Assembly: GCA_035538795.1 (NCBI GenBank)
Contig: DATLJS010000055.1
Coordinates: forward strand, 25,426 to 89,425
Source of the DNA: Candidatus Sulfotelmatobacter sp.
Lineage (GTDB): Bacteria; Pseudomonadota; Alphaproteobacteria; Rhodospirillales; Magnetospirillaceae
DNA length: 64,000 nt
Direction: 5' to 3'
Shown: positions 39,154 through 56,202 of the stretch, one piece after another
Numbering within the stretch: the stretch's first letter is position 1
Layout: every line of letters starts with the position of its first letter
Program-made: the position numbers and the translations under genes
Notes under the pieces: generated by a model
The model's input: the letters and a program-made list of their open reading frames with translations, nothing else
The model's database searches: none
What the model was told of the DNA's origin: nothing

Positions 39154-39993
39154 TCAGGTGACGATGATTTCGGCGGACGCGCCGGTATGGCGGATATAAT
39201 GCTGCAGAATGGCCGCCGAAGCTTCCTCGATGGACCGGCGCGACACGTCGATGACCGGCCAGTTGTGGCGGGTGAACAGACGCCGGGCCATGGCCACTTC
39301 CTCGCGCACCTTGTCCAGGTCGGCATAGTCCGCTTCCCCGTCGTGATTGAGAAATTGCAGCCGCGACCGGCGGATGTCGGTCAGGCTTTTCGGTTCCTTG
39401 GTCAGTCCGACGATCAGCGGCCGCTTGGCTTGGAACAGTTCGGGGGGCGGTTCGATCCCCGGCACCAGCGGAATATTGGCGGCCTTCAGGCCCCGGTTGG
39501 CCAGATACATGCAGGTCGGAGTCTTCGAGGTTCGGGAAATTCCTACCAGAATGACGTCGGCATCGTCCAGATCGTGCAGCAGCTGGCCGTCGTCGTGGGC
39601 CAGGGTGAAATGCATGGCGTCGATACGGCGGAAATATTCGGCGTCGAGAACATGCTGACGGCCCGGCTGCGCACCGAATTCCGAATCCAGATAACCGGCC
39701 AGCGCCCCCATCACCGGATCCAGCACCGGCACGAAGGGAACATGCATGTGGCGGCAGGCTTCTTCCAGAAGACCGCGCACGCCGCCGTCGAGAACTGTGG
39801 CCAGCACCAGGCCGGGATTGGCCTCGATGCCGGTGATCACCCGTTCGACCTGCTTTTCCGTACGCACCAGCCACCAGGGATGGGTGATGGCCTCGACTTT
39901 TTCAAACTGCACCAGACAGGCGCGGGCCACCGAGTTCAAGGTCTCGCCGGTGGCGTCGGATACCAGATGAAGATGGAATTTCTTGACCGACAC
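39154..39993 (-). CDS. pyruvate, phosphate dikinase / PEP synthase regulatory protein (DUF299 kinase/pyrophosphorylase)
   Basis: FHLHLVSDATGETL N-terminal motif and a GISRTSKTPTCMYLA P-loop. The start is uncertain. GTG 39993 gives the ~279 aa typical of the family and leaves a perfect DnaA box intergenic. In-frame ATGs at 40041 and 40080 are alternatives. Confidence 0.8.
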   Translation of the reverse strand: MSVKKFHLHLVSDATGETLNSVARACLVQFEKVEAITHPWWLVRTEKQVERVITGIEANPGLVLATVLDGGVRGLLEEACRHMHVPFVPVLDPVMGALAGYLDSEFGAQPGRQHVLDAEYFRRIDAMHFTLAHDDGQLLHDLDDADVILVGISRTSKTPTCMYLANRGLKAANIPLVPGIEPPPELFQAKRPLIVGLTKEPKSLTDIRRSRLQFLNHDGEADYADLDKVREEVAMARRLFTRHNWPVIDVSRRSIEEASAAILQHYIRHTGASAEIIVT

Positions 39994-40377
39994 GAAGGCA
40001 CCGTCCTGTGGATAAGTCCGAACTTCGGGGATAACCCCCATGGTTTCGCCAGTGTGCCAATTTTGCCCCCCACATGCCATGGCCTAATCCATTCCTCGGC
40101 CCCCCTGTGGAGCGAAGACTTCGTCGCCGATACGGAATCGGGGATGTTTCGCAGACACCGCCATTATCCCCGTTTTCCAGTGGTCGCCGTCCCCATGATT
40201 CCTTGATCGACCTCAAGGGCTTGCGGACGGTTGAAGTCTTATTGTCCACAGAATTCCTCGTCAGGGGATAAAAGGTGGATAATTCGCGGGACAGCCTGTG
40301 CGAAGAGTCGCATCCCCGTTATCCACAGGCATCCACCATCACAGCCACCTTTCCTAATACCTTTAAGACCTGTATTG
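39994..40377. other. oriC: putative chromosomal replication origin (oriC) with DnaA-box cluster
   Basis: Two perfect TTATCCACA boxes (40007-40015 reverse, 40319-40327 forward). Two one-mismatch boxes (40242-40250, 40274-40282). Three two-mismatch boxes (40026-40034, 40164-40172, 40263-40271). Three GANTC sites. The spacer is non-coding and lies between a DUF299 gene and hemE, as at the Caulobacter origin. Confidence 0.7.
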
Positions 40378-41460
40378 ATGAGCCCAGTTCCAGTCACCAC
40401 GCCGGCCACGGAGACGACCTTGTCCCAGCATCCGCAAAAAGCCTTTCTGCGCGCCCTCAAAGGCGAAACCGTCTCGCCGCCGCCGTTCTGGCTGATGCGC
40501 CAGGCCGGACGCTATTTGCCGGAATACCGCGAAGTCCGTGCCGGCTGCTCCGGCTTCCTCGATCTTTGCTACACGCCAGAAAAAGCCACGGAAGTCACAC
40601 TCCAGCCGCTGCGCCGTTATGGCTTCGACGCCGCCATCTTGTTCTCGGACATCCTGGTCGTGCCCGACGCCCTGGGTCAGCCGGTATCCTTCCGCGAAGG
40701 CGAAGGCCCCAGGCTGAACCCCATCCGCGACGCCACCGGTTTAGACAAATTGTCCAAGAACGGCTTCAAATCCCATCTGGCTCCGGTCTTCGAAACCGTT
40801 TCCCGTCTGTCTAAAGCCATTCCCGCAACCACCGCGCTGATCGGCTTCGCCGGAGCCCCCTGGACGGTCGCCACCTATATGGTCGAAGGAGCCGGCTCCA
40901 AGGAGTTCGTTGAAACGAAAAAGCTGGCCTATGGCCAGCCGTCTGTTTTCAAGGCGTTGATCGACCTTCTGGTGGACGCCACCGGCGACTATCTGATCAC
41001 TCAGATCGATCACGGCGCCGAAGCCATCCAGCTTTTCGACAGCTGGGCCGGCGTGCTGCCGGAAGAAGAGTTTTCAAAGTGGGTGATCGAACCCACCCGC
41101 CGACTGGTCGAACGCATCAAGAGCGAACGGCCGGGAATTCCCGTCATCGGTTTCCCCCGCTGCGCCGGAGCTTTGCTGCTGCCGTTCGTCGAACGGACTG
41201 GCGTCGATGCCGTCAGCCTGGACACCAGCGTTCCCTTGGATTGGGCCGCCCGGCATATCCAGACTAAGGTGACGGTGCAGGGCAATCTGGACCCGGTGAT
41301 GCTGATCGCCGGCGGCCCGGCCCTGGATCAAGCCATCGACCATGTGCTGAAGGCGCTGGGCAAGGGGCCGTTCATTTTCAATCTCGGCCACGGCATTTTA
41401 CCCTCGACCCCGCCCGAAAACGTGGCACGTCTGGCCGACAAGGTGAAGGGCAGGATTTAA
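40378..41460 (+). CDS. hemE: uroporphyrinogen decarboxylase
   Basis: [16 protein letters not shown] signature near the N-terminus and collinear URO-D similarity across 360 aa. The start is set at ATG 40378, and the ORF-track start at 40231 lies in the DnaA-box region. Confidence 0.92.
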
Positions 41461-42990: not shown

Positions 42991-43129
42991 TTCCCAAGTC
43001 GGCGGGCCGATGCCAGCCGTCTCACCTTATGCCGCCTTGGGCCGATCCTAACTCCGCCCTCCGGCAGACAACCTCCCTCCGGCCCCTTTGGGGCAAATCC
43101 TCCCGTATTTTCCTACTATTGGACCCGCT

Positions 43130-44386
43130 ATGAATCTTCAGGAATTGAAGGCCAAGACTCCGGCTGAACTTCTCGCCTATGCCGAGGAGCTGCAGATCGA
43201 AAACGCATCGACCTTGCGCAAGCAGGACATGATGTTCGCCATCCTGAAGCAGCTGGCCGAGAACGACACGCCGATCTATGGCGACGGCGTTCTCGAAATT
43301 CTGTCGGACGGGTTTGGTTTTCTGCGTTCGCCCCAGGCCAATTATCTGCCGGGTCCCGACGACATCTATGTTTCGCCCAGCCAGGTCCGCCGCTTCGGCC
43401 TGCGCACCGGCGACACCGTCGAAGGCCAGATCCGGGCTCCCAAGGACGGCGAGCGCTATTTTGCCCTGCTGAAGGTCAACACCATCAATTTCGAGCCGCC
43501 GGAAAACGTGCGGCACCGCATCAACTTCGACAACCTGACTCCGCTTTATCCCGACGAGCGTCTGAAGCTGGAGCTGGAGGATCCCACCAAGAAGGATCTG
43601 ACCACCCGCGTCATCGACCTGATTTCGCCGCTGGGCAAGGGGCAGCGCGCCCTAATCGTGGCGCCGCCGCGCACCGGCAAGACGGTGATGCTGCAAAACA
43701 TCGCCCACGCCATTTCCGCCAACCACCCGGAAGTCTATCTGATCGTCCTGCTGATCGACGAGCGTCCGGAAGAAGTGACCGACATGGCCCGTTCGGTGAA
43801 GGGCGAAGTCATCAGCTCCACCTTCGACGAACCGGCCACCCGTCACGTCCAGGTCACCGAGATGGTCTTGGAAAAGGCCAAGCGTCTGGTCGAACACAAG
43901 CGCGACGTGGTGATCCTGCTGGACTCCATCACCCGCTTGGCCCGCGCCTACAATACCGTGGTGCCCAGCTCGGGCAAGGTGTTGACCGGTGGTGTCGACG
44001 CCAATGCCCTGCAGCGTCCGAAGCGCTTCTTCGGTGCCGCCCGCAATATCGAGGAAGGCGGTTCGCTGACCATTATCGCCACGGCCCTGATCGATACCGG
44101 CAGCCGTATGGACGAAGTGATTTTCGAAGAGTTCAAGGGCACCGGCAATTCCGAGCTGATCCTGGACCGCAAGCTGTCGGACAAGCGCACCTTCCCGGCT
44201 ATCGACATCACCAAGTCGGGCACCCGCAAGGAAGAGCTGCTGGTCGATCGCGGCGTTCTGTCCAAGATGTGGGTGCTGCGCCGCGTGCTGATGCCGATGG
44301 GCGTGGTCGACGCCATGGAGTTCCTGGTGGACAAGCTGAAGCATTCGAAGACCAATTCCGATTTCTTCGACGCCATGAACAGCTGA
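43130..44386 (+). CDS. rho: transcription termination factor Rho
   Basis: [22 protein letters not shown]-terminal domain, the OB-fold RNA-binding region (GFGFLR), Walker A PPRTGKT and RecA-like core motifs across 418 aa. Confidence 0.96.
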
Positions 44387-44414
44387 TCTCGTTCACCGGT
44401 CCGAAAAAGCAAAA

Positions 44415-44447
44415 GGGCGCTGTTCCACGTGAAACAGCGCCCTTTTT
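44415..44447 (+). terminator. rho-independent terminator of rho, stem built around a parS-like palindrome
   Basis: GGGCGCTGTT-CCACGTGA-AACAGCGCCC followed by TTTTT, 29 nt after the rho stop. Confidence 0.8.
44421..44436. other. parS: parS site (TGTTCCACGTGAAACA, 1 mismatch to the palindrome)
   Basis: Matches the canonical ParB-binding consensus TGTTNCACGTGAAACA, read directly. Confidence 0.8.
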
Positions 44448-44509
44448 GTATGTTGTTAAGCCTAGTATCTTGCTTCAATCAGGGTGATCGCGATTAAGGG
44501 GATATTCAC

Positions 44510-46189
44510 ATGAAAATCAAATCCATCATGATCCGCTTGAGCGGGTTGATTCTCCTCAGCGCCGTGGGGTTGGCGCTGCTGTCTTTTCTCGCGGCGTATT
44601 TCCTGCGCGAAAGCATGATGGATGCAAAAATTTCCGAGGCCCGTGTTCTTGTGGAATCGGCCAGGGATCTGATCAAGGGCTATCACGACCGGGCCGAGAA
44701 GGGGGAATTCGATCAGCAGACGGCGCAGGAACTGGCCAAGAAGGCTATCCGCTCCATGCGTTACGACGGCTCCAATTACTTCGTCATCTACGATATGACG
44801 GTCACTACAGTCGTGCATCCGGCTCGGCCGGAACGCGATGGCAAGAATTTCTATGATGAAAAGGACGGCAACGGGGATCTCTATTTGCATCGAATGCTGG
44901 AAACGGTGAAGCAAGGCGGCGGCGTCAGCACCTATTCCTTTCCCAAGGCGGGCGGCAGCGTTCCCATCGGTAAGACGGCTTATTCCTTGCCCTACGAACC
45001 TTGGGGCTGGTTCATCGTGACTGGTCTTTACATCGACGACATCGACAGTGAATTTTGGAAGACCATCTGGAAATTCCTGGGGATTGGCACCGTCATTCTG
45101 CTGGTCATCTCGGCCACCGCCTTCCTGGTTTCACAATCCATTTCCCATCCTTTGAAGGCTTTGGCCGATACCACCAAGAAAATCATCGCCGGCGATTTTG
45201 CCGTAGCCGTGCCGGCGCTGGAGCGGGCTGACGAAATCGGTTCCCTGGCGGAAGCGGTCCAGCTTCTGCGGGACGAGGCCAAGACCGCTGCCGAGCTTCG
45301 CCATCAGCGGGAAAACGATATGCTCGATGCCGCTAATCAGCGGCATAAAACCATGATCGATATGGCCAAGCGTTTTGAAACCGGCGTGATGGGGGTGGTT
45401 AACGAAGTTTCGTCGTCTTCAGCGAAGATGGTCGAGGTCGGCCGGGTAATGGTTTTCAAGGTTCAGGAAGGCACCAAGCAGTTGGTGAACATGTCGGCGA
45501 CGGCCGAGGAAGCCACCGGTAATGTGGAGACGGTGGCGGTTGCCGCCGAGGAACTGTCGGCCTCGATCCGGGAAATCAGCCGTCAGGTGGCGGAGGCGGC
45601 GAATATTTCCTCAACCGCTTCGATTGAAACCGACCGCGCCAACCAGCTGGTCATCGGTCTGGCTCAAACCACCGACAAGATCGGCGCCGTCGTGCAGCTG
45701 ATCAACGATATCGCCACCCAGACCAATCTGCTGGCTCTGAACGCCACCATCGAAGCCGCCCGCGCGGGTGAAGCCGGTAAAGGTTTTGCCGTGGTGGCCA
45801 ACGAGGTCAAGCATCTGGCCACCCAGACGGCCAAGGCCACCGAGGAAATCACCACCCAGATCAATGCCGTTCAGGATGAAACACGGGGCGCGGTTTCCGC
45901 GATTGGCGGCATCGCCAGCGTCATCGAGCAGGTAAAAAGCATTTCTTCGGGCATCGCCTCGGCGGTGGAGCAGCAAAGCGCCGCCACCCAGGAAATCGCC
46001 CGTAACGTTCAGAACGCCGCCGACGGCACCCAGAAGATTTCCACCCATCTGGAAGAATTGGTGGTCGATGCCGAAACCCGTCTGCAACTGGTCAATCAGG
46101 TGGTGGATTCCATGTCAGGCATGGCCTCCAACACCGATAAGCTGCGTCAGGAAGTGACGGGCTTTATCGACGGCATCCGCAAGGGCTGA
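44510..46189 (+). CDS. methyl-accepting chemotaxis protein (single Cache-type sensor, HAMP, MCP signalling domain)
   Basis: N-terminal transmembrane helix, a Cache-like periplasmic domain (YFVIYD...VVHP...GKNFYDEKD), a second transmembrane helix, HAMP, and the highly conserved hairpin [41 protein letters not shown]. Confidence 0.92.
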
Positions 46190-46216
46190 ACGGCTCTTGC
46201 AAACAAGACAAAGAAG

Positions 46217-46256
46217 GGAGCGTTGTTTCACGGGAAACAACGCTCCTGTTCTTTTT
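46217..46256 (+). terminator. rho-independent terminator of the MCP gene, stem built around a parS-like sequence
   Basis: GGAGCGTTGTTTC-ACGG-GAAACAACGCTCC followed by TGTTCTTTTT. Confidence 0.8.
46224..46239. other. parS: parS-like site (TGTTTCACGGGAAACA, 1 central mismatch)
   Basis: 15 of 16 positions match TGTTTCACGTGAAACA. Confidence 0.6.
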
Positions 46257-46260
46257 CGCC

Positions 46261-46276
46261 TGTTTCACGTGAAACA
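46261..46276. other. parS: parS site, perfect palindrome TGTTTCACGTGAAACA
   Basis: Exact 16-bp consensus in the intergenic space. The palindrome extends to 20 bp (CCTGTTTCACGTGAAACAGG, 46259-46278). Confidence 0.88.
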
Positions 46277-46298
46277 GGAAAATCCTACGGTATCGGCC

Positions 46299-47282
46299 TT
46301 AGGGTAGCAGAATGGTCGAACCGGTGGTTTTGCGGGCTTCCAGGTCGCGATGGGCCTGGGCCGCTTCCGCCAGGGGATAGGTTTGGTTGATTTCGACCTT
46401 GACCGCCTTGGCGGTCACGACGTCGAACAATTCCTTGGCGCAATGGAGCAGGTCGGGCCGGGGGCCGGCATAGGTGCCGAGGGTCGGACGGGTGACGTAC
46501 AGCGACCCCTTGGCCGCCAGAATCCCCAGATCGACCGGACCGATGGCGCCGGAACTTTGACCGAAGCTGGCCAGCAGGCCGCGCGGCTGCAGGCAATCCA
46601 GCGACTGATAGAAGGTGTCCTTGCCCACCGAATCGTAGACCACCGGCACGCCCTTGCCGTCGGTGATTTCCTTGACCCGTTCGACAAAATTTTCGCGGCT
46701 GTAGACAATCGGATGATCACAGCCGTGACGATGGGCCAGCGCCGCCTTTTCATCGGACCCGACGGTGCCGATGACGGTGGCGCCCAGGTGCTTGGCCCAC
46801 TGGCAGGCGATCAGACCGACGCCGCCGGCGGCGGCGTGGATCAAGATGGTGTCGCCGGCCTTCACCCGATAGGTGGAACGCAGCAGATATTGCGCCGTCA
46901 TGCCTTGCAGCATCATGGCGGCGGCATGCTTGTCGTCGATGTCGTCGGGCAGGCGGACCAGACGGGCGGCGGGATAAATCCGTTCCTCGCAATAGGAGCC
47001 GGGAGCGCCCATGGCGTAGGCTACGCGGTCGCCGACATCGACCTCGGTCACGCCGGGGCCGACCTCCACCACGATGCCGGCGCCTTCCATGCCGATCGAG
47101 GCCGGCAGGACGGGAAGGGGATAAAGGCCGGTGCGATGATAGACGTCGATGAAATTCAGGCCGACGGCGGTATGGCGCAGGCGCACTTCGCCGGAGCCGG
47201 GCTTGCCGATCTCCACCTCTTCCCAGCGCATTTGCTCGGGGCCGCCATGGGCGTGGATACGGATGGCCTTGCTCATGATCAC
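46299..47282 (-). CDS. qor: NADPH:quinone oxidoreductase (zeta-crystallin-like MDR family)
   Basis: MDR fold with the HAAAGGVG nucleotide-binding motif and a GEVRLRHTAVGLNFID N-terminal pattern. Confidence 0.82.
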   Translation of the reverse strand: MIMSKAIRIHAHGGPEQMRWEEVEIGKPGSGEVRLRHTAVGLNFIDVYHRTGLYPLPVLPASIGMEGAGIVVEVGPGVTEVDVGDRVAYAMGAPGSYCEERIYPAARLVRLPDDIDDKHAAAMMLQGMTAQYLLRSTYRVKAGDTILIHAAAGGVGLIACQWAKHLGATVIGTVGSDEKAALAHRHGCDHPIVYSRENFVERVKEITDGKGVPVVYDSVGKDTFYQSLDCLQPRGLLASFGQSSGAIGPVDLGILAAKGSLYVTRPTLGTYAGPRPDLLHCAKELFDVVTAKAVKVEINQTYPLAEAAQAHRDLEARKTTGSTILLP

Positions 47283-47740
47283 TGTCCTTTCGTCAAATCG
47301 AAGCCTTCAAGGGCCAGAAGATATTTTTTGGTGTCGGTGCCGCCGAAGCCGGAATAGCCGGTCAGGGCGCCGTTGCCGGCGATGACCCGGTGGCAGGGAA
47401 TGATGATGGGCAAGGGATTGCGGCCGCAGGCGCCGCCGACGGCCCGCGGCGATGATTTCAGCCTGTTGGAAATGTCGCCGTAGCGCAAAATCCGGCCATA
47501 GGGAATTTCCTGCATGATGCGCCAGACGTTCTTTTGAAAGTCGCTACCGGGCGGATCCAGGGGCAGATCGAAGTCCTTCAGCCTTCCTTCGAAATAGGCA
47601 TCGATCTGGCGGGCGGCTTCCAGCAGCAGCGGAGTTTCCTCGCCGTCATCCACTGCGCCCCAGTCCAGACTGACCAGCTTGCCGTTCTCTTCGAACAAGG
47701 TCAGGTCGCAAATGGGGCTGGGAATGGTCAGATAGGCCAT
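47279..47740 (-). CDS. ogt: methylated-DNA--protein-cysteine methyltransferase
   Basis: Active-site IPCHRV motif and a TGYSGFGG pattern, 153 aa. Confidence 0.88.
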   Translation of the reverse strand: MAYLTIPSPICDLTLFEENGKLVSLDWGAVDDGEETPLLLEAARQIDAYFEGRLKDFDLPLDPPGSDFQKNVWRIMQEIPYGRILRYGDISNRLKSSPRAVGGACGRNPLPIIIPCHRVIAGNGALTGYSGFGGTDTKKYLLALEGFDLTKGQ

Positions 47741-47755
47741 GGAAGGACAAGCTCC

Positions 47756-49762
<2,007 letters not shown>

Positions 49763-49891
49763 GAAGGGCCTTTCAAAAATCGGGCTAAGAGAGGATCGCC
49801 CAAGGAGGATTGCATTGATGCTGTCTTACCGCTTAGTTTGGACGTCCGGCCCTTGGTTGCAACCGTCATCCTGCCATTACGGAGCCTGACT

Positions 49892-50152
49892 ATGAAGATC
49901 ACGTTCGATGTGGACTGCACGCCCGAGGAGGCGCGGACCTTCTTCGGTCTGCCTGACGTCAAGTCCATGCAGGATTCCATGATGAAGAAGATCGAGGAAC
50001 GCATGGGCGCCAACCTGGACGCCATGAGCCCCGAAGCCCTGCTGAAAACCTGGCTGCCGGCCGGGGTGCAGGGCATGGAGCAATTCCAGAAAATGTTCTG
50101 GAACGCCTTTCAGGGCAACGGCCAAACCCGAACCAGGAAGAGTGAACCGTGA
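49892..50152 (+). CDS. small hypothetical protein (86 aa)
   Basis: ATG 49892 has a GGAG SD 7 nt upstream. The stop overlaps the downstream GTG start, indicating translational coupling. No family assigned. Confidence 0.45.
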   Translation: MKITFDVDCTPEEARTFFGLPDVKSMQDSMMKKIEERMGANLDAMSPEALLKTWLPAGVQGMEQFQKMFWNAFQGNGQTRTRKSEP

Positions 50153-50517
50153 GTCTGCCTGCCGATCCGCCGCTGTACTTCCGCCTGCATCTGTTCATCT
50201 GCACCAATCAGCGCCCCGAAGGCCATCCCCGCGGTTCCTGCGCCCGCTCCGGATCCGAGAAGCTGCGGGATTATCTGAAGGCGCGGGCCAAGGAACTGGG
50301 GCTGGGTGACGTTCGCGTCAACAGCGCCGGATGTCTGGACCGCTGCGAGTTGGGGCCGGTGCTGGTGATCTATCCCGAAGGCGTCTGGTACGGCTTCAAG
50401 ACGCACGAGGATATCGACGAGATCCTTGCCGCCCATTTGCAGGGCGGCGGCCGGGTCGAACGGTTGATGCTGCGGCCCGAGGACGGCCCCTTCAAAGACG
50501 GCCCGAAGAAGCACTGA
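50149..50517 (+). CDS. thioredoxin-like [2Fe-2S] ferredoxin family protein
   Basis: Cys pattern in HLFICTNQR...GSC...AGCLDRCELGPVLVIYPEGVWY, typical of this ferredoxin-like family. Confidence 0.7.
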   Translation: MSLPADPPLYFRLHLFICTNQRPEGHPRGSCARSGSEKLRDYLKARAKELGLGDVRVNSAGCLDRCELGPVLVIYPEGVWYGFKTHEDIDEILAAHLQGGGRVERLMLRPEDGPFKDGPKKH

Positions 50518-50518
50518 C

Positions 50519-51817
50519 ATGGACAGCATCTTCGCCCTGGCCAGCGCCGCCGGGCGGGCCGGGGTGGCGGTCTATCGCCTGTCCGGCCCCAAGGTGGCCG
50601 AAACGGTCCGTTCCCTGACCGGCGCCGATCTGCCGCCGCCGCGCCGGGCCGTCTTCCGTTCCATCTTTCATAAGGGCGAACTGATCGACCAGGGACTGGT
50701 GATCTGGTTTCCGGCTCCGGCCAGCTTTACCGGTGAGGATGTCGCCGAATTGCAGATCCACGGTGGCCGGGCGGTGGCCCAGGCTCTGACCGAAGCCTTG
50801 CGGGCCAGCGGCCTGCGCCCCGCCGAACCGGGAGAATTCAGCCGCCGGGCCTTCGAGGCGGGCAAGCTGGACCTGACCCAGGCGGAAGCTATCGCCGATC
50901 TGGTGGACGCCGAAACGGCGGCGCAGCGGCGGCAGGCCTTGCGGCAGATGGACGGAGCCCTTTTGCGCCTTTACGAGGATTGGCGTGAACGGCTGCTGCG
51001 GGCTCAGGCTCATCTGGAAGCCGAAATCGATTTTTCCGACGAAGACCTGCCCGGCGGCTTGAGCGAAGCGGCCCGGCTGTCCCTTCAGGACATGATGGCC
51101 GAGATGAGCCTGCATCTGGCCGACGGTCATCGCGGCGAACGGCTGCGTGACGGTTTGCACGCGACCATTCTGGGATCGCCCAACGTCGGTAAGTCCAGCC
51201 TGTTGAACCGTATCGCCGGACGCGAGGCGGCCATCGTCTCGTCGCAGGCGGGAACCACCCGCGACGTTATCGAGGTGCATCTCGACCTGGGCGGCTATCC
51301 CGTGGTGCTGGCCGACACCGCCGGGCTGCGCGAGGCGGGAGAGGCGGTCGAGGAAGAAGGCATCCGCCGCGCCCGCGCCCGCGCCGAAGCCGCCGATCTG
51401 AAACTGGTGGTGTTCGACGCCAGCCAGCCGGTGGACGCCGCGGTGCTGGAGCTGGTGGACGACCAGTCTTTGGTGCTGCTGAACAAGAGTGATCTGGCGG
51501 CGGCCGATTTTCCCCTGAAGGGCATGGCGGTATCGGCCAAGACCGGCGACGGCCTGGATGTCCTGCTGGCGGAACTGGCCCGCCGCGCCGCCGATGTCCT
51601 GGAGGGATCGGGAGCTCCGGCTCTGACCCGCGCCCGTCACCGGGCGGCGATCGAGGACGCGCTGGAGAATCTTCGCCATGCCCTGCATGCGGGGCTTCCC
51701 GAACTGGCCGCGGAAGATGTAAGACTCGCCTCACGGGCGCTGGGCCGAATCACCGGGCGGGTGGATGTCGAGGATATGCTTGACATCATCTTCCGGGAAT
51801 TCTGCATCGGAAAGTGA
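50519..51817 (+). CDS. mnmE: tRNA uridine-5-carboxymethylaminomethyl synthesis GTPase MnmE
   Basis: G-domain motifs GSPNVGKSSL and DTAGLR, with the C-terminal FCIGK tetrapeptide signature. Confidence 0.95.
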   Translation: MDSIFALASAAGRAGVAVYRLSGPKVAETVRSLTGADLPPPRRAVFRSIFHKGELIDQGLVIWFPAPASFTGEDVAELQIHGGRAVAQALTEALRASGLRPAEPGEFSRRAFEAGKLDLTQAEAIADLVDAETAAQRRQALRQMDGALLRLYEDWRERLLRAQAHLEAEIDFSDEDLPGGLSEAARLSLQDMMAEMSLHLADGHRGERLRDGLHATILGSPNVGKSSLLNRIAGREAAIVSSQAGTTRDVIEVHLDLGGYPVVLADTAGLREAGEAVEEEGIRRARARAEAADLKLVVFDASQPVDAAVLELVDDQSLVLLNKSDLAAADFPLKGMAVSAKTGDGLDVLLAELARRAADVLEGSGAPALTRARHRAAIEDALENLRHALHAGLPELAAEDVRLASRALGRITGRVDVEDMLDIIFREFCIGK

Positions 51818-51863
51818 TGTCTCCGCCGCCTGGACCTTCGGGGACATAGAGAACCAAAGACTC

Positions 51864-51879
51864 TGTTTCACGTGAAACA
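51864..51879. other. parS: parS site, perfect palindrome TGTTTCACGTGAAACA
   Basis: Exact consensus in the mnmE-mnmG spacer. Confidence 0.88.
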
Positions 51880-51889
51880 ACGGATCGAG

Positions 51890-53758
51890 ATGGAAAAAGT
51901 CGACGTCATTGTAATCGGCGCCGGACATGCCGGCTGCGAAGCCGCCGCCGCTTCGGCGCGCATGGGAGCCAAGACCCTGCTGCTGACCCAGCGTCTGGAG
52001 ACGGTGGGCGAGATGAGCTGCAACCCGGCCATCGGCGGCTTGGCCAAGGGCCAGCTGGTGCGCGAGATCGACGCCCTGGACGGCGTCATGGGCCGGGTCA
52101 TCGATCGGGCCGGCATTCAGTTCCGCATTCTTAACCGCAGCAAGGGACCGGCGGTGCAGGGGCCCAGGGCCCAGGCCGACCGCAAGCTTTACCGCCGGGC
52201 CATGACCGAAATTCTGGCCGAGACCGCCAATCTGGAAGTGCGCGCCGCCTCGGTCGAGGGATTGCTGACGGCCGTCGACGGCATCACCGTCACCGGCGTA
52301 ACCCTGGCCGACGGCGGCGAGATCGCGTCAGGGGCGGTGGTCATCACCACCGGCACTTTTCTGCGCGGCATCGTCCATATCGGCCAGACTACTTTCCCGG
52401 CGGGACGCATGGGCGACCAGCCAAGCCTTGGGCTGTCAGCATCGCTGGAAAAAATCGGCTTCACTCTGGGGCGGCTGAAGACTGGAACGCCTTGCCGTCT
52501 GGACGGCCGGACCATCGCCTGGGACAGCCTGGACCAGCAGTTGGGCGACGATCCGCCGGTGCCGTTCTCCTATCTGACCGACAAGATCACGACGCCGCAG
52601 ATCGCCTGCGGCATCACCGGCACCACCGAGGCCAGCCACCGGCTGATCCGCGCCAATCTGGATCGGGCGCCGATGTATTCCGGCCAGATCGGCAGCGTCG
52701 GTCCGCGCTATTGTCCCAGCATCGAGGACAAGGTGGTGCGCTTCGGCGATCGCGACCGCCATCAGATCTTCCTGGAACCGGAGGGTCTGGACGACCATAC
52801 CGTCTATCCCAACGGTATCTCCACCAGCCTGCCGGAAGATGTGCAGTTGGCTTTGCTGAAGACCATTCCCGGCCTGGAACAGGCGGTGATGCTGCGGCCC
52901 GGCTATGCCATCGAATATGATTACGTCGATCCCCGCGAACTGTACCGCACCTTGGAGACCCGCCGGGCGCCGCGCCTGTTTCTGGCCGGTCAGATCAACG
53001 GCACCACCGGTTACGAGGAAGCCGGGGCGCAGGGCCTGATGGCCGGTATCAACGCCGCCCTGGCGGTCGGCGGTGGAAGCCGTTTCACCTTGGACCGCGC
53101 CGACGCCTATATTGGCGTGCTGATCGACGATCTGGTGACGCGGGGCACGTCCGAACCCTATCGCATGTTCACCTCGCGGGCGGAATACCGTCTGATCCTG
53201 CGTTCCGACAACGCCGACCTGCGGCTGACGCCGAAAGGAATGGAACTGGGCGTTGTCGGTTCCGTTCGCCGCGACTCTTTTTTGGCGAAGGCGGAAGCCT
53301 TGAAGCAGGGCAGGGCGCTGATGCTGTCTTTGGCTGCCACGCCCAACGAGTTGAAGGCCAAGGGTTTCAACGTCAACCAGGACGGTGTTCGCCGGTCGGC
53401 TTTCGATTTGCTGCGCTATGCCGATGTGACTTGGGAACAGTTGACCGCCCAATGGCCCGGCTTGCAGGGGTTGCGTCCGGATGTCGCCGAACAGCTGGAG
53501 ATCGAAGGGCGTTATGCCGGCTATCTCGATCGTCAGACCGCCGACATTCTCGCCTTCCGCCGGGATGAGGCCTTGGAGCTTCCCGACGATCTCGATTACG
53601 CCGCCATCGGATCCCTGTCCAACGAGGTGCGCCTGAAGCTACAGGCCGCCCGTCCGGCCACGCTGGGGGCGGCCGGACGCATTCCCGGCGTCACCCCGGC
53701 GGCGCTGACCGCCTTGCTGGCCCATGTGAAGCGGCAAGAGAAGGGGAGCGCCGCATGA
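51890..53758 (+). CDS. mnmG: tRNA uridine 5-carboxymethylaminomethyl modification enzyme MnmG
   Basis: FAD-binding motif [15 protein letters not shown] and full-length GidA collinearity. The start is set at ATG 51890, because the ORF-track GTG at 51872 lies inside the parS palindrome. Confidence 0.95.
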
Positions 53759-54399
53759 GCGTTTCACGTGAAACAACCCTGCCGCCCATGAGCCGCGAGC
53801 AGTTTGCCCAGACTCTCTCTGTTTCACGTGAAACGCTGGAGCGGTTGAGCGCCTATGCCGAGTTACTGGTGAAATGGCAGGCCAAGATCAATCTGGTTGG
53901 GCCGGCGACGCTGCCCGACCTGTGGCGGCGGCATATGCTGGATTCGGCCCAGATGGCCGCCCATCTGCCGGACGGGCCGGTGCTCGATCTCGGCAGCGGG
54001 GCGGGATTTCCCGGTCTGGTGCTGGCGGTCATGACCGGCCAGACGGTGCATCTGGTAGAGTCCGACGCGCGGAAATGCGCTTTTTTACGGGAAGCCGCCC
54101 GCATTGCCGGCGCCGACGTCGTCATCCACAACAAGCGGATCGAGGCCGTCGCGCCTTTCTCCGTGGCGGCGGTGACGGCCCGGGCTCTGGCCTCGTTGGA
54201 TAAATTGTTGGATTGGGCTGCGCCCTTTTTGCAACAGCGAACGCAATGCCTCTTCCTGAAGGGGAAGATCGTCGATGAAGAATTGACCCAGGCGGGCGAA
54301 CATTGGAAGATGACCTCCAGACGGGTTCCGTCCTTGTCGGACCCCTCCGGTCTTATTCTCATCCTTAATGAGGTACATCGTGGTCGAGACGAGCGCTAG
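53755..54399 (+). CDS. rsmG: 16S rRNA (guanine527-N7)-methyltransferase RsmG
   Basis: VSRETLERL...[14 protein letters not shown]-terminal pattern and the SAM motif [15 protein letters not shown]. An alternative start at ATG 53788 would place the first parS outside the CDS. Confidence 0.9.
53760..53775. other. parS: parS site (CGTTTCACGTGAAACA, 1 flank mismatch)
   Basis: 15 of 16 match, at the mnmG/rsmG junction. Confidence 0.75.
53820..53835. other. parS: parS site (TGTTTCACGTGAAACG, 1 flank mismatch) inside rsmG
   Basis: 15 of 16 match. It encodes the conserved RsmG peptide VSRET. Confidence 0.75.
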
Positions 54400-55189
54400 C
54401 CGCGGCCCTTTGGTGTCTTCGCGGATCATCGCCATCGCCAATCAGAAGGGCGGCGTCGGTAAAACCACCACCGCCATCAATCTGGCGACGGCCATCGCGG
54501 CCACCAAGAAGAAGGTTCTGGTGATCGATCTCGATCCTCAGGGCAATGCCAGCACCGGCCTGGGCATCGAGCGAGGCCAGCGCGCCATCAGCTCGTATCA
54601 TGTGCTGATGGGCGAAGCCACCCTGGAGCAGGCGATTCTGACCTGCCCGATCCCCAACCTGTCGGTGGTGCCGTCGTCGGTGGACCTGTCGGGCGCCGAG
54701 ATCGAGCTGGTGGACGCCGATCGGCGCGAAGCGCGCTTGCGCGACGCCTTGGCCAAGGCGTCCGGCTGGGACCTGATCCTGATCGATTGCCCGCCGTCGC
54801 TGAATTTGCTGACCCTGAACGCCCTGGTGGCGGCTCAGGCGGTGCTGGTTCCCCTGCAGTGCGAGTTCTTCGCCCTGGAAGGCATCAGCCATCTGGTCAA
54901 GACCATCGAGCGGGTGCGCGCCGCCCTCAATCCCAGCCTGGAGCTGCACGGAATCGTCCTGACCATGTTCGACAAAAGGAACAATCTGTCGGATATGGTC
55001 GCTGCCGACGTACGTGGTTACTTTGGTGATAAGGTCTATAAAACAGTGATACCCCGAAATGTTCGCGTCTCCGAGGCGCCTTCCCACGGCAAGCCGGTGC
55101 TGCTCTATGATGTGCGGTGCGCCGGCTCCGAGGCTTATATCCATCTGGCCCGCGAAGTGATCAAGCGCGAGCAGGAGCTGTGCGCATGA
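54368..55189 (+). CDS. parA: chromosome partitioning ATPase ParA
   Basis: Deviant Walker A IANQKGGVGKTTT and ParA/Soj collinearity. The start is uncertain: ATG 54368 overlaps rsmG by 32 nt, and TTG/GTG at 54410/54413 are alternatives. Confidence 0.92.
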   Translation: MRYIVVETSASRGPLVSSRIIAIANQKGGVGKTTTAINLATAIAATKKKVLVIDLDPQGNASTGLGIERGQRAISSYHVLMGEATLEQAILTCPIPNLSVVPSSVDLSGAEIELVDADRREARLRDALAKASGWDLILIDCPPSLNLLTLNALVAAQAVLVPLQCEFFALEGISHLVKTIERVRAALNPSLELHGIVLTMFDKRNNLSDMVAADVRGYFGDKVYKTVIPRNVRVSEAPSHGKPVLLYDVRCAGSEAYIHLAREVIKREQELCA

Positions 55190-56202
55190 GTGGTGAAGCC
55201 CCGCGCCGCGGACTGGGCCGCGGACTGTCCGCCCTGTTGGGCGATCCCGCTCCGGTCGCGGCTCCGGTCACGCCCACGGTGATGATGGCCACCACCATTC
55301 CCACCACGCCGGGCGAAGCCAGCGTGCCGGTGAGCATGGTCGATCCTTCCCGTCTGGTGCGCTATCTGCCCATCGAGAAGCTTTATCCCGGCAAGTTCCA
55401 GCCGCGTCGCGTCTTCGATCAGAACGCCATCGACGATCTGGCCGAATCGGTCAAGGCCAAGGGGATTCTCCAGCCGATCCTGGTGCGTCCCCTGGAAAAA
55501 CAGGACCGCTTCGAGATCATCGCCGGTGAACGCCGCTGGCGGGCGGCGCAGAAGGCCAACCTGCACGAGGTGCCGGTGATCGTCCGCGAGATGGCGGACA
55601 TCGAGGCTTTGGAAATCGCCCTGATCGAGAACCTGCAGCGTCAGGATCTTTCGCCCCTGGAAGAGGCCGAGGGCTATCGCCGCCTGATGAATGAGTTCAA
55701 GCACACGCAGGAAGAACTGGCCCAAGTGGTGGGCAAGAGCCGCAGCCATGTGGCCAACACCATGCGCTTGCTGGCTTTGCCCGATCCGGTGAAGAAGCTG
55801 CTGGACGACGGCGCTTTGTCGGCCGGTCATGCCCGCGCCTTGCTGACCAGCCCGGATCCGGTGGCCTTGGCCGAGCAGGTGGTGGCCAAGGGGTTAAACG
55901 TTCGCCAGACCGAAGCCCTGGCCAATCAGCAGCCTGGCAAAAGCCCTAAGGCCGGCAAGACCGCGGGCGGCTCGAAGCCAGCGGCGGGCGATTCCGCCTA
56001 TCGCGACGCTGATGTGGAATCGCTGGAGCGGGATCTGTCCAACCTGCTGGGCTTGCGGGTATCGATCCGCACCGCGTCCCAGCAAGGCGGCGAACTGGCC
56101 GTCGAATATGGTTCCTTGGAACAGTTGGACGATATCCTGCATCGTCTGTCCGGAGGTCTGCATGGCCGGGCGAATATCCCGGCCGGCTTCGGCGACGAGT
56201 AG
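55186..56202 (+). CDS. parB: chromosome partitioning protein ParB
   Basis: RGLGRGLSALLG N-terminal motif, the ParB box IAGERRWRAA and an HTH region. ATG 55186 overlaps the parA stop. Confidence 0.94.
   Translation: MSGEAPRRGLGRGLSALLGDPAPVAAPVTPTVMMATTIPTTPGEASVPVSMVDPSRLVRYLPIEKLYPGKFQPRRVFDQNAIDDLAESVKAKGILQPILVRPLEKQDRFEIIAGERRWRAAQKANLHEVPVIVREMADIEALEIALIENLQRQDLSPLEEAEGYRRLMNEFKHTQEELAQVVGKSRSHVANTMRLLALPDPVKKLLDDGALSAGHARALLTSPDPVALAEQVVAKGLNVRQTEALANQQPGKSPKAGKTAGGSKPAAGDSAYRDADVESLERDLSNLLGLRVSIRTASQQGGELAVEYGSLEQLDDILHRLSGGLHGRANIPAGFGDE

Follow-up and report, generated by a model that had tools for sequence, protein, structure and literature searches.

In Caulobacter crescentus at least five parS sites lie within 5 kb, about 8 kb from the origin, and the ParB zone found experimentally covers about 10 kb, with ParB spreading about 2 kb per site (PMC5815017). 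Seven sites of this cluster have been defined by sequence and five of them are strong; they are found on one side of a hemE-adjacent origin, in and around the gene string rho-mnmE-mnmG-rsmG-parA-parB, and some are intragenic (Toro et al. 2008; Tran et al. 2018, PMC5815017). The parS sites of Bacillus subtilis Spo0J, as they are presented in PMC5815017 and PMC7333895 (Lin and Grossman 1998; Breier and Grossman 2007), consist of the same palindrome, are origin-proximal and lie in part within coding sequences, and they belong to a system with ParB spreading and SMC loading. According to the same sources, the B. subtilis sites extend over tens of kb and include some origin-distal ones.

We have analyzed a stretch of 64,000 nucleotides (the window hereafter) from the genome of an uncultured Rhodospirillales bacterium, in which six copies of this palindrome very probably represent the chromosomal centromere (parS), that is, the predicted ParB loading sites. 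The likeness to C. crescentus, also an alphaproteobacterium, extends to the 16-bp consensus, the clustering on one side of a hemE-adjacent (here putative) origin, the gene string in and around which the sites are found, the intragenic location of some of them, the recognition helix of ParB, which is identical, and the presence of MipZ. The locus differs from that of Caulobacter in the length of the cluster (9.4 kb versus about 5 kb), in a 5.6-kb gap and in two sites that are embedded in terminator-like extended palindromes. Unlike the B. subtilis sites as presented in the sources above, all those found here lie within the 9.4 kb.

The palindrome cluster, its genes and the partition proteins

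A motif scan of the window with TGTTTCACGTGAAACA gave two perfect copies and four with one mismatch (Table 1), exactly where the sequence-only reading had put them, and the six sites fit the 16-bp inverted repeat consensus TGTTNCACGTGAAACA in the same way. Sites with exactly two mismatches were absent from the window, and 100 shuffled versions of it contained no match to the motif. In the whole genome (4,146,954 bp or ~4.15 Mb in 75 contigs, 62.8% GC) the six cluster sites were the only ones with two mismatches or fewer, a scan that in this draft covers the assembled sequence, so that unassembled gaps might hold further sites. The reversed pattern used as control had no match in the whole genome, and the analytic expectation for matches with at most one mismatch is 0.011 per genome. 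The claim that six matches in less than 10 kb are far above chance was correct. A motif strewn over the genome, named beforehand as the outcome that would speak against a centromere, is ruled out by the absence, in the assembled sequence, of any site with two or fewer mismatches beyond the 9.4-kb stretch. Two unrelated three-mismatch matches exist in the genome (C20:230130 and C35:138349) and were discarded both as additional parS candidates and as a possible source of site 2, since they have neither palindromic context nor a neighbouring gene for a methyl-accepting chemotaxis protein (MCP). Binding to half-sites has been reported in Pseudomonas (PMC5961200); here the half-site GTTTCAC is not enriched genome-wide (324 copies versus 298 for the reversed control).

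Table 1 Predicted parS sites, neighbouring genes and putative origin, with positions in the window
Feature	Position	Strand	Remarks
Putative oriC	40007..40440		Four DnaA boxes, two perfect TTATCCACA
rho	43088..44386	+	712.8 bits (cut-off 315); left boundary gene of the cluster
parS site 1, TGTTCCACGTGAAACA (T5C)	44421..44436		One mismatch
MCP gene	44510..46189	+	Between site 1 and sites 2/3
parS site 2, TGTTTCACGGGAAACA (T10G)	46224..46239		One mismatch
parS site 3	46261..46276		Perfect, intergenic; 22 nt from the stop codon of minus-strand qor
parS site 4	51864..51879		Perfect; in the 72-nt mnmE-mnmG spacer, ends 10 nt before the mnmG ATG at 51890
mnmG (gidA)	51890..53758	+	Site 4 on one side, sites 5/6 on the other
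rsmG (gidB)	53755..54399	+	First 27 codons hold sites 5 and 6
parS site 5, CGTTTCACGTGAAACA (C at position 1)	53760..53775		At the mnmG stop / rsmG start overlap
parS site 6, TGTTTCACGTGAAACG (G at position 16)	53820..53835		Within the 5' codons of rsmG
parA, Soj-type partition ATPase	54368..55189	+	ParA family matches; AAA_31, CbiA
parB, 338 aa	55186..56202	+	From an ATG overlapping the parA stop

The DnaA boxes are clustered at 40007-40327, at and between a DUF299/PDRP-type gene and hemE; taken along the entire contig, the cumulative GC skew is lowest at ~43.6 kb. These boxes, together with the synteny and the short-range skew minimum, point to this region as a putative oriC. All six sites are on one side of the DnaA-box cluster, at distances of 4.2-13.6 kb, and 0.5-9.9 kb upstream of parA-parB, the nearest one 548 bp before the parA start, in agreement with the proposed location at 4-14 kb from the putative origin and just upstream of parA-parB. 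Sites 3 and 4 are 5.6 kb apart, and the genes in this gap are qor, ogt, a DUF255 gene, a DUF6489 gene and mnmE; the 9.4-kb spread is a reflection of lineage-specific gene content between rho and mnmE and not of a special design. Known RNA families gave no match at the gathering threshold between 39.5 and 57 kb.

ParA has the deviant Walker A motif KGGVGKT. ParB contains the ParB_N, HTH_ParB and ParB_C domains (Pfam), the last being the C-terminal dimerisation domain; its N-terminus is MSGEAPRRGLGRGLSALLG, with the ParA-contact motif RRGLGRGLSALL, and the CTP motif (GERRxRA) reads GERRWRAA. The closest solved relative is the ParB-parS complex of Caulobacter ParB (6T1F/7BM8; E 3.5e-69, 60% identical), and the recognition segment GKSRSHVANTMRLLALPD is identical in our ParB and in the Caulobacter protein, which was co-crystallised with this same parS sequence. 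Only one true ParB above the Pfam cut-off is found in the whole genome, ruling out a second ParB or a plasmid-type partition protein as the owner of some of the sites. The genome also encodes a full-length MipZ (347 bits) and SMC (855 bits).

Conservation of the sites in Rhodospirillales

The motif was found in 40 of 41 related genomes, usually as two or three copies in one cluster. We have compared 46 ParB-anchored loci containing 113 sites, and in 45 of the 46 the same sites occur at the same gene junctions beside parAB. They are concentrated at the mnmE/mnmG and mnmG/rsmG junctions: 35 of the 113 lie 3.0-4.0 kb upstream of parB, most related loci having a site at the mnmE/mnmG junction, and 60 lie at 1.0-1.5 kb, often as doublets 48-92 bp apart, while none of the 113 was located downstream of the parB start in any of the 46 loci. 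The positions of sites 4-6, on either side of mnmG, are conserved across the order; in our genome site 4 fills the hot spot in the mnmE/mnmG spacer, and sites 5 and 6 fill the one at the mnmG/rsmG junction. In the congeners (MAGs LL4.bin51 and BP5.bin101) the site at the rho terminator is also present, and the spacing is shared, with 5.5 kb, 1.9 kb and then 48-60 bp. The number of sites is different, six here versus four or five in the congeners and two or three (range 2-4) in most relatives, and where the MCP gene is inserted in our genome with three sites around it, congeners and relatives have a single one.

The interpretation of the six palindromes as a parS cluster, already advanced by the sequence-only reading, is supported by sites that are unique in the genome, by parA and the sole ParB downstream, by the identical recognition helix and by the 45 of 46 related loci. 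It also fits the known organisation of chromosomal partition loci in many other bacteria, with sites adjoining parAB and the putative origin.

Terminator-like palindromes and unequal sites

The six sites are unequal in predicted quality, with T10G at site 2 and with sites 1 and 2 forming also terminator-like hairpins. Sites 3 and 4, being perfect, and sites 5 and 6, in which only the outermost variable base is changed (position 1 varies in 22 of the 113 related sites), should be strong ParB sites. The T5C/A12G variant is seen again in nine of the 113, and site 1 is probably functional, T5C being a recurrent natural variant. Position 10 is T in all of the related sites and G in site 2, and because this invariant core position is altered, site 2 is probably the weakest candidate, with weak ParB binding predicted. 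It is also absent from the congeners.

Sites 1 and 2 are the cores of longer palindromes, of 36 bp (44411-44446) and 32 bp (46216-46247) respectively, both followed by a T-run and both located 35 nt past a stop codon, that of rho for site 1 and that of the MCP gene for site 2. The stems have 14-16 pairs before the T-run and start 25 nt after the rho stop and 27 nt after the MCP stop; the predicted folds have energies of -23.9 kcal/mol (z -5.4) for site 1 and -29.0 kcal/mol (z -6.0) for site 2. Both are therefore terminator-like, with the GC-rich stem-loop and U-tract after a stop codon that define intrinsic (Rho-independent) terminators. The palindrome after rho is common to related genera. 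The counterpart of site 1 in the congeners is their single parS downstream of rho, an ortholog, and the same flanks were found in five of the related loci (L005, L006, L009, L010 and L014), L014 with a compensatory flank change (GGGCGC/GCGCCC versus GGGCGG/CCGCCC). At least two genera thus share the arrangement of a parS inside a terminator-like palindrome, with a single compensatory change in the flanks. A literature search gave no earlier description of terminators that contain a chromosomal parS.

These features suggest, at somewhat less than an even chance, that the rho-proximal parS sites are dual-use elements, which would load ParB as duplex DNA and form the stem of an intrinsic terminator as RNA. 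Besides the parS palindrome, this stem would comprise 8-10 GC-rich pairs, with a U-tract after it, and in the congeners the terminator would be bidirectional. If so, such elements might shield the border of the ParB zone against read-through transcription.

The same hairpins allow a reading in which only part of the cluster is a centromere: sites 3-6 and probably site 1 would load ParB, while site 2 and possibly site 1 would be mainly or only the terminator stems of the MCP gene and rho, leaving four or five functional sites instead of six. The perfect or near-perfect palindromes with T-runs at the same distance from stop codons, the strength of the predicted folds and the T10G change, where all 113 related sites have T, are all compatible with it, and Caulobacter ParB binds two of its seven sequence-defined sites weakly (PMC5815017). 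However, a match of 15 out of 16 positions to parS is too improbable for an unrelated terminator (0.011 expected per genome), and a terminator role in RNA leaves the duplex DNA open to ParB. The variant at site 1, moreover, recurs among relatives and has the sequence of the classic parS inside B. subtilis spo0J. We consider this partial reading rather unlikely.

For sites 5 and 6, which are in frame and 60 bp apart, the coding sequence itself had to be weighed, since both read VSRET in the rsmG frame and the second VSRET stands immediately before the match to the RsmG family model, which begins at residue 32. It is very improbable that RsmG coding constraint, and not ParB binding, keeps these two. 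Since every residue of VSRET has synonymous codons, the peptide can be encoded without the exact GTTTCACGTGAAAC, yet the core is invariant in the 113 sites; with respect to the mnmG stop, the first copy in some relatives (e.g. L013-L015) is in a different frame or falls outside, and the length of the N-terminal extension varies (spacing of 48-92 bp) with the palindrome intact. Finally, that the palindromes are operators of another DNA-binding protein or a repetitive or mobile element, next to parAB by coincidence, is hardly credible: two relatives (G029 and G010) do carry many copies strewn over the genome, which means that in some lineages the motif is not confined to the surroundings of parAB, but in our genome there are none beyond the cluster, the flanks of the six sites have no repeat in common, the half-site is not enriched, the junctions are syntenic beside parAB across the whole order, and the sequence is the canonical parS with a ParB recognition helix that matches the solved ParB-parS complex.

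Site number and the predicted partition zone

The six parS sites probably go back to two sources. To an order-wide core around mnmG, one parS inside a bidirectional rho-qor terminator would have been added in this genus and a neighbouring one, and in our genome the insertion of a foreign MCP gene at this single site would have turned it into three. The MCP gene has a low GC content (~57%) and its presence at this position is specific to this genome, while site 3 is placed relative to qor like the single site of the congeners. A recent internal duplication of an MCP gene carrying its own terminator was ruled out, as the closest paralog is just 42% identical. The reason for the variable number of parS sites is listed as an open question in a review of ParABS (PMC7333895), and the rho-qor region may provide a small concrete example of growth in parS number, by gene insertion at a parS-bearing terminator.

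By analogy with the well-studied ParABS family, from which ParB binding, clamp loading, spreading and segregation at these sites are inferred, dimers of the single ParB would use the helix-turn-helix to recognise each 16-bp parS; with CTP bound at the GERRxRA motif, they would close into a clamp and slide onto the flanking DNA. This would give one or two ParB-rich zones, on one side of oriC and a few kb away from it. If ParB spreads as in Caulobacter, by only about 2 kb per site, the spreading zone proposed in the sequence-only reading, from rho through rsmG, could fall into two sub-zones separated by the 5.6-kb gap that follows site 3, and it would also extend into parA and parB. Through its N-terminal RRGLGRGLSALL peptide, ParB would stimulate the ParA ATPase so that the duplicated origin regions are pulled apart, and the ParB-parS complex should also serve to position MipZ and to load SMC.

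A parS cluster beside parAB and the origin is an ordinary, well-known arrangement, and the understanding of ParABS is unchanged by it. The comparison does document an order-wide rule for Rhodospirillales, by which the parS sites are placed around mnmG, upstream of parAB, and none is located past the parB start. For this uncultured Rhodospirillales genome the gain is one of annotation, a predicted centromere that, together with the neighbouring putative oriC, would make up its origin domain.

Six parS-like sites beside the probable origin

A pattern search of the window recovered the palindrome TGTTTCACGTGAAACA as two exact copies and four copies with one mismatch, at precisely the coordinates given by the sequence-only reading, and found no two-mismatch copies there. 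In 100 shuffled versions of the window the pattern had zero matches, and the chance expectation from base composition is 0.011 sites at ≤1 mismatch per genome. Scatter of the motif over the genome, which that reading had regarded as incompatible with its claim, was not seen: a scan of the whole assembly (4,146,954 bp in 75 contigs, 62.8% GC; the window is C55:25426-89425) showed six sites only, all in the cluster, with no other match at ≤2 mismatches. Two three-mismatch matches elsewhere in the genome, without palindromic context, were rejected. The interpretation of the six palindromes as a chromosomal parS cluster is supported.

The gene order was obtained from NCBIfam and Pfam scans. Beside hemE, at 40007-40327, there are four of the ten DnaA-box matches of the window (two of them perfect), and over the full 103-kb contig the cumulative GC skew is lowest at ~43.6 kb. 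The origin is probably located near these hemE-adjacent boxes. Judging from the box cluster and the skew minimum, the parS sites lie 4.2-13.6 kb from the probable origin, all to one side, and 0.55-9.9 kb upstream of parA, bearing out the earlier placement near a putative oriC and upstream of parA-parB.

Features of the parS region, in window coordinates
Feature	Position	Strand	Remarks
coaE, maf		minus	left end of listed order
DUF299/PDRP-type gene	39154-40080	minus	followed by intergenic gap
hemE, hemH, hemJ			after the gap, before rho
rho	43088-44386		followed by site 1
site 1	44421 (start)		one mismatch
methyl-accepting chemotaxis protein (MCP) gene	44510-46189		between site 1 and sites 2 and 3
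site 2	46224 (start)		one mismatch
site 3	46261-46276		exact
qor, ogt, DUF255 thioredoxin-like gene		minus	after sites 2 and 3
small DUF6489 gene	49892-50152		directly upstream of mnmE
mnmE	50519-51817		followed by site 4
site 4	51864-51879		exact
mnmG	51890-53758		between site 4 and sites 5 and 6
rsmG	53755-54399		sites 5 and 6 within first codons
site 5	53760 (start)		one mismatch
site 6	53820 (start)		one mismatch
parA	54368-55189		after rsmG
parB	55186-56202		after parA
holA, lptE, leuS		other strand	beyond parB

Partition proteins and parS in relatives

The parB gene starts at an ATG overlapping the parA stop codon. Its product has the N-terminal peptide RRGLGRGLSALL, the CTP-binding motif GERRWRAA and the domains ParB_N, HTH_ParB and ParB_C; the closest solved structure is Caulobacter ParB (6T1F, 7BM8; E 3.5e-69), in which GKSRSHVANTMRLLALPD, containing the recognition helix, is the same. 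This is the only ParB above the Pfam cut-off in the genome. ParA carries a deviant Walker A (KGGVGKT). Genes for MipZ (full length, 347 bits) and for an SMC (855 bits) lie away from the parAB locus. The genome has the complete part list for a Caulobacter-like ParABS system. A 713-aa open frame at C69:5121-5327 (minus strand) matches ParB_N below threshold (24.1 bits); this ParB_N-like domain is probably of the ParB-like nuclease kind or associated with a methylase, and not that of a partition protein.

The ParB-anchored loci place the lineage in the Rhodospirillales, ParB being 72% identical in the congener MAGs LL4.bin51 and BP5.bin101 and ~60% in Caenispirillum. The motif was present in 40 of 41 sampled genomes, mostly in two to three copies at a single location, and six copies is the third-highest count among them. 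We collected 113 sites at ≤2 mismatches from 46 ParB-anchored loci. Measured upstream from the parB start, 60 are at the mnmG/rsmG junction (1.0-1.5 kb), often as doublets, 35 in the mnmE/mnmG spacer (3.0-4.0 kb) and 10 at 9-10 kb; none of the 113 lies 3' of it.

In many Rhodospirillales (L016, L025, L026, L035-L038, L044 and other loci) the mnmE stop codon (…ATCGGCAAGTGA) immediately touches the first parS base, ~3.3-3.5 kb upstream of parB; here this parS is 46 nt further on. Sites 5 and 6 (53755-53835) each read VSRET in one rsmG frame, 60 bp apart, and relatives also have this doublet or, in some cases, three copies, spaced 48-92 bp apart. Since the spacing varies and the palindrome is kept, the RsmG N-terminal extension with parS varies in length.

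Two relatives have dispersed sites. G029, a 3.6-Mb genome of the same order and another family, has 22 parS at ≤1 mismatch, most of them perfect, scattered over ~17 contigs at roughly one per 100-130 kb (for example C1:39864, C1:168343, C1:289109, C5:6142 and C5:102571; loci L055-L066). The 12 scattered sites that were read have unique flanks, most with the extended consensus AAT-parS-ATT(T). Its single ParB (C28) has a local parS cluster beside it, and such genome-wide dispersal with one ParB is unusual. G010, of the same family as the genome under study, has nine parS on eight contigs and one ParB (C79:68994): a canonical pair flanking mnmG (C79:65442, C79:67442) and one site each on C5, C15, C21, C23, C40, C62 and C69.

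Probable growth of the cluster and overlap with putative terminators

In both congeners rho is followed by one perfect parS and a convergent qor, without a gene between rho and parS, and this parS sits in the palindrome AAAGGCGC-parS-GCGCCTTTT. Their remaining spacing (5.5 kb, 1.9 kb and 48 bp) agrees with that found here, and the small DUF6489 gene 5' of mnmE is also kept. Locus L014, from a third genus, is arranged in the same way, its flanks being GGGCGG/CCGCCC versus GGGCGC/GCGCCC here, a difference that reads as a compensatory change keeping the extended palindrome. The rho-qor interval of our genome holds the MCP gene, absent from the congeners, with ~57% GC versus 63% for the genome; its closest paralog among ~50 MCP-like genes is 42% identical. 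It is a genome-specific insertion between rho and qor, and three sites stand where the congeners have one: site 1 after rho with ancestral flanks, site 2 after the MCP gene in a separate 32-bp palindrome, and site 3 adjoining qor. Three of the six sites would thus form a core shared across the order, and the other three would derive from one site of the genus through a gene insertion, a direction of change that we infer by parsimony.

Site 1, ~35 nt past the rho stop codon, and site 2, ~35 nt past that of the MCP gene, each form the core of a hairpin (14-16 bp) followed by a T-run. They were the top terminator-like matches in a consensus scan, with hairpin energies of -23.9 and -29.0 kcal/mol (z of -5.4 and -6.0 versus shuffles); sites 3 and 4 gave no terminator-like signal in the same folding test. 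A terminator acting as RNA and a ParB site acting as DNA are compatible, and we take the overlap as an added property and not a contradiction. The literature searched contained no report of chromosomal terminators with built-in parS sites.

Among the 113 sites of relatives, palindrome positions 1 and 16 vary in 22 and 17 sites and the symmetric pair 5/12 in nine; the other positions vary almost never and position 10 is invariant. Sites 3 and 4 have no mismatch, the change in sites 5 and 6 is confined to the variable outermost base, and site 1 has the recurrent variant T5C. Site 2 is predicted to be the least likely good ParB binder, since its T10G is found in no relative, and its main function might be that of a terminator. 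This predicted weakness resembles that of Caulobacter, where two of seven sequence-defined sites bind ParB weakly (PMC5815017).

Predicted ParB zone

The standard ParABS reading is the best-supported one. The parS sites would load ParB dimers, which would close as CTP-dependent clamps and then spread along flanking DNA; ParA would segregate the ParB-parS complex, and the complex would recruit MipZ and SMC. We infer these steps from Caulobacter and B. subtilis, where they are established (PMC5815017, PMC7333895, PMC8494293). The nearest known case is the Caulobacter cluster, where five or more sites occupy 5 kb, ~8 kb from ori, whereas the one described here spans 9.4 kb. In Caulobacter the ParB zone covers ~10 kb and an isolated site spreads ≤ ~2 kb. 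If that range holds for this genome, sites 3 and 4, which are 5.6 kb apart, may belong to two separate sub-zones, and the zone would reach into parA and parB. Given these possible sub-zones and this extension, the zone from rho through rsmG predicted by the sequence-only reading would be a reasonable estimate. The parS cluster is an ordinary, correct annotation of a well-known kind, modestly unusual in the embedding of sites in putative terminators and in the probable multiplication of sites linked to an insertion.
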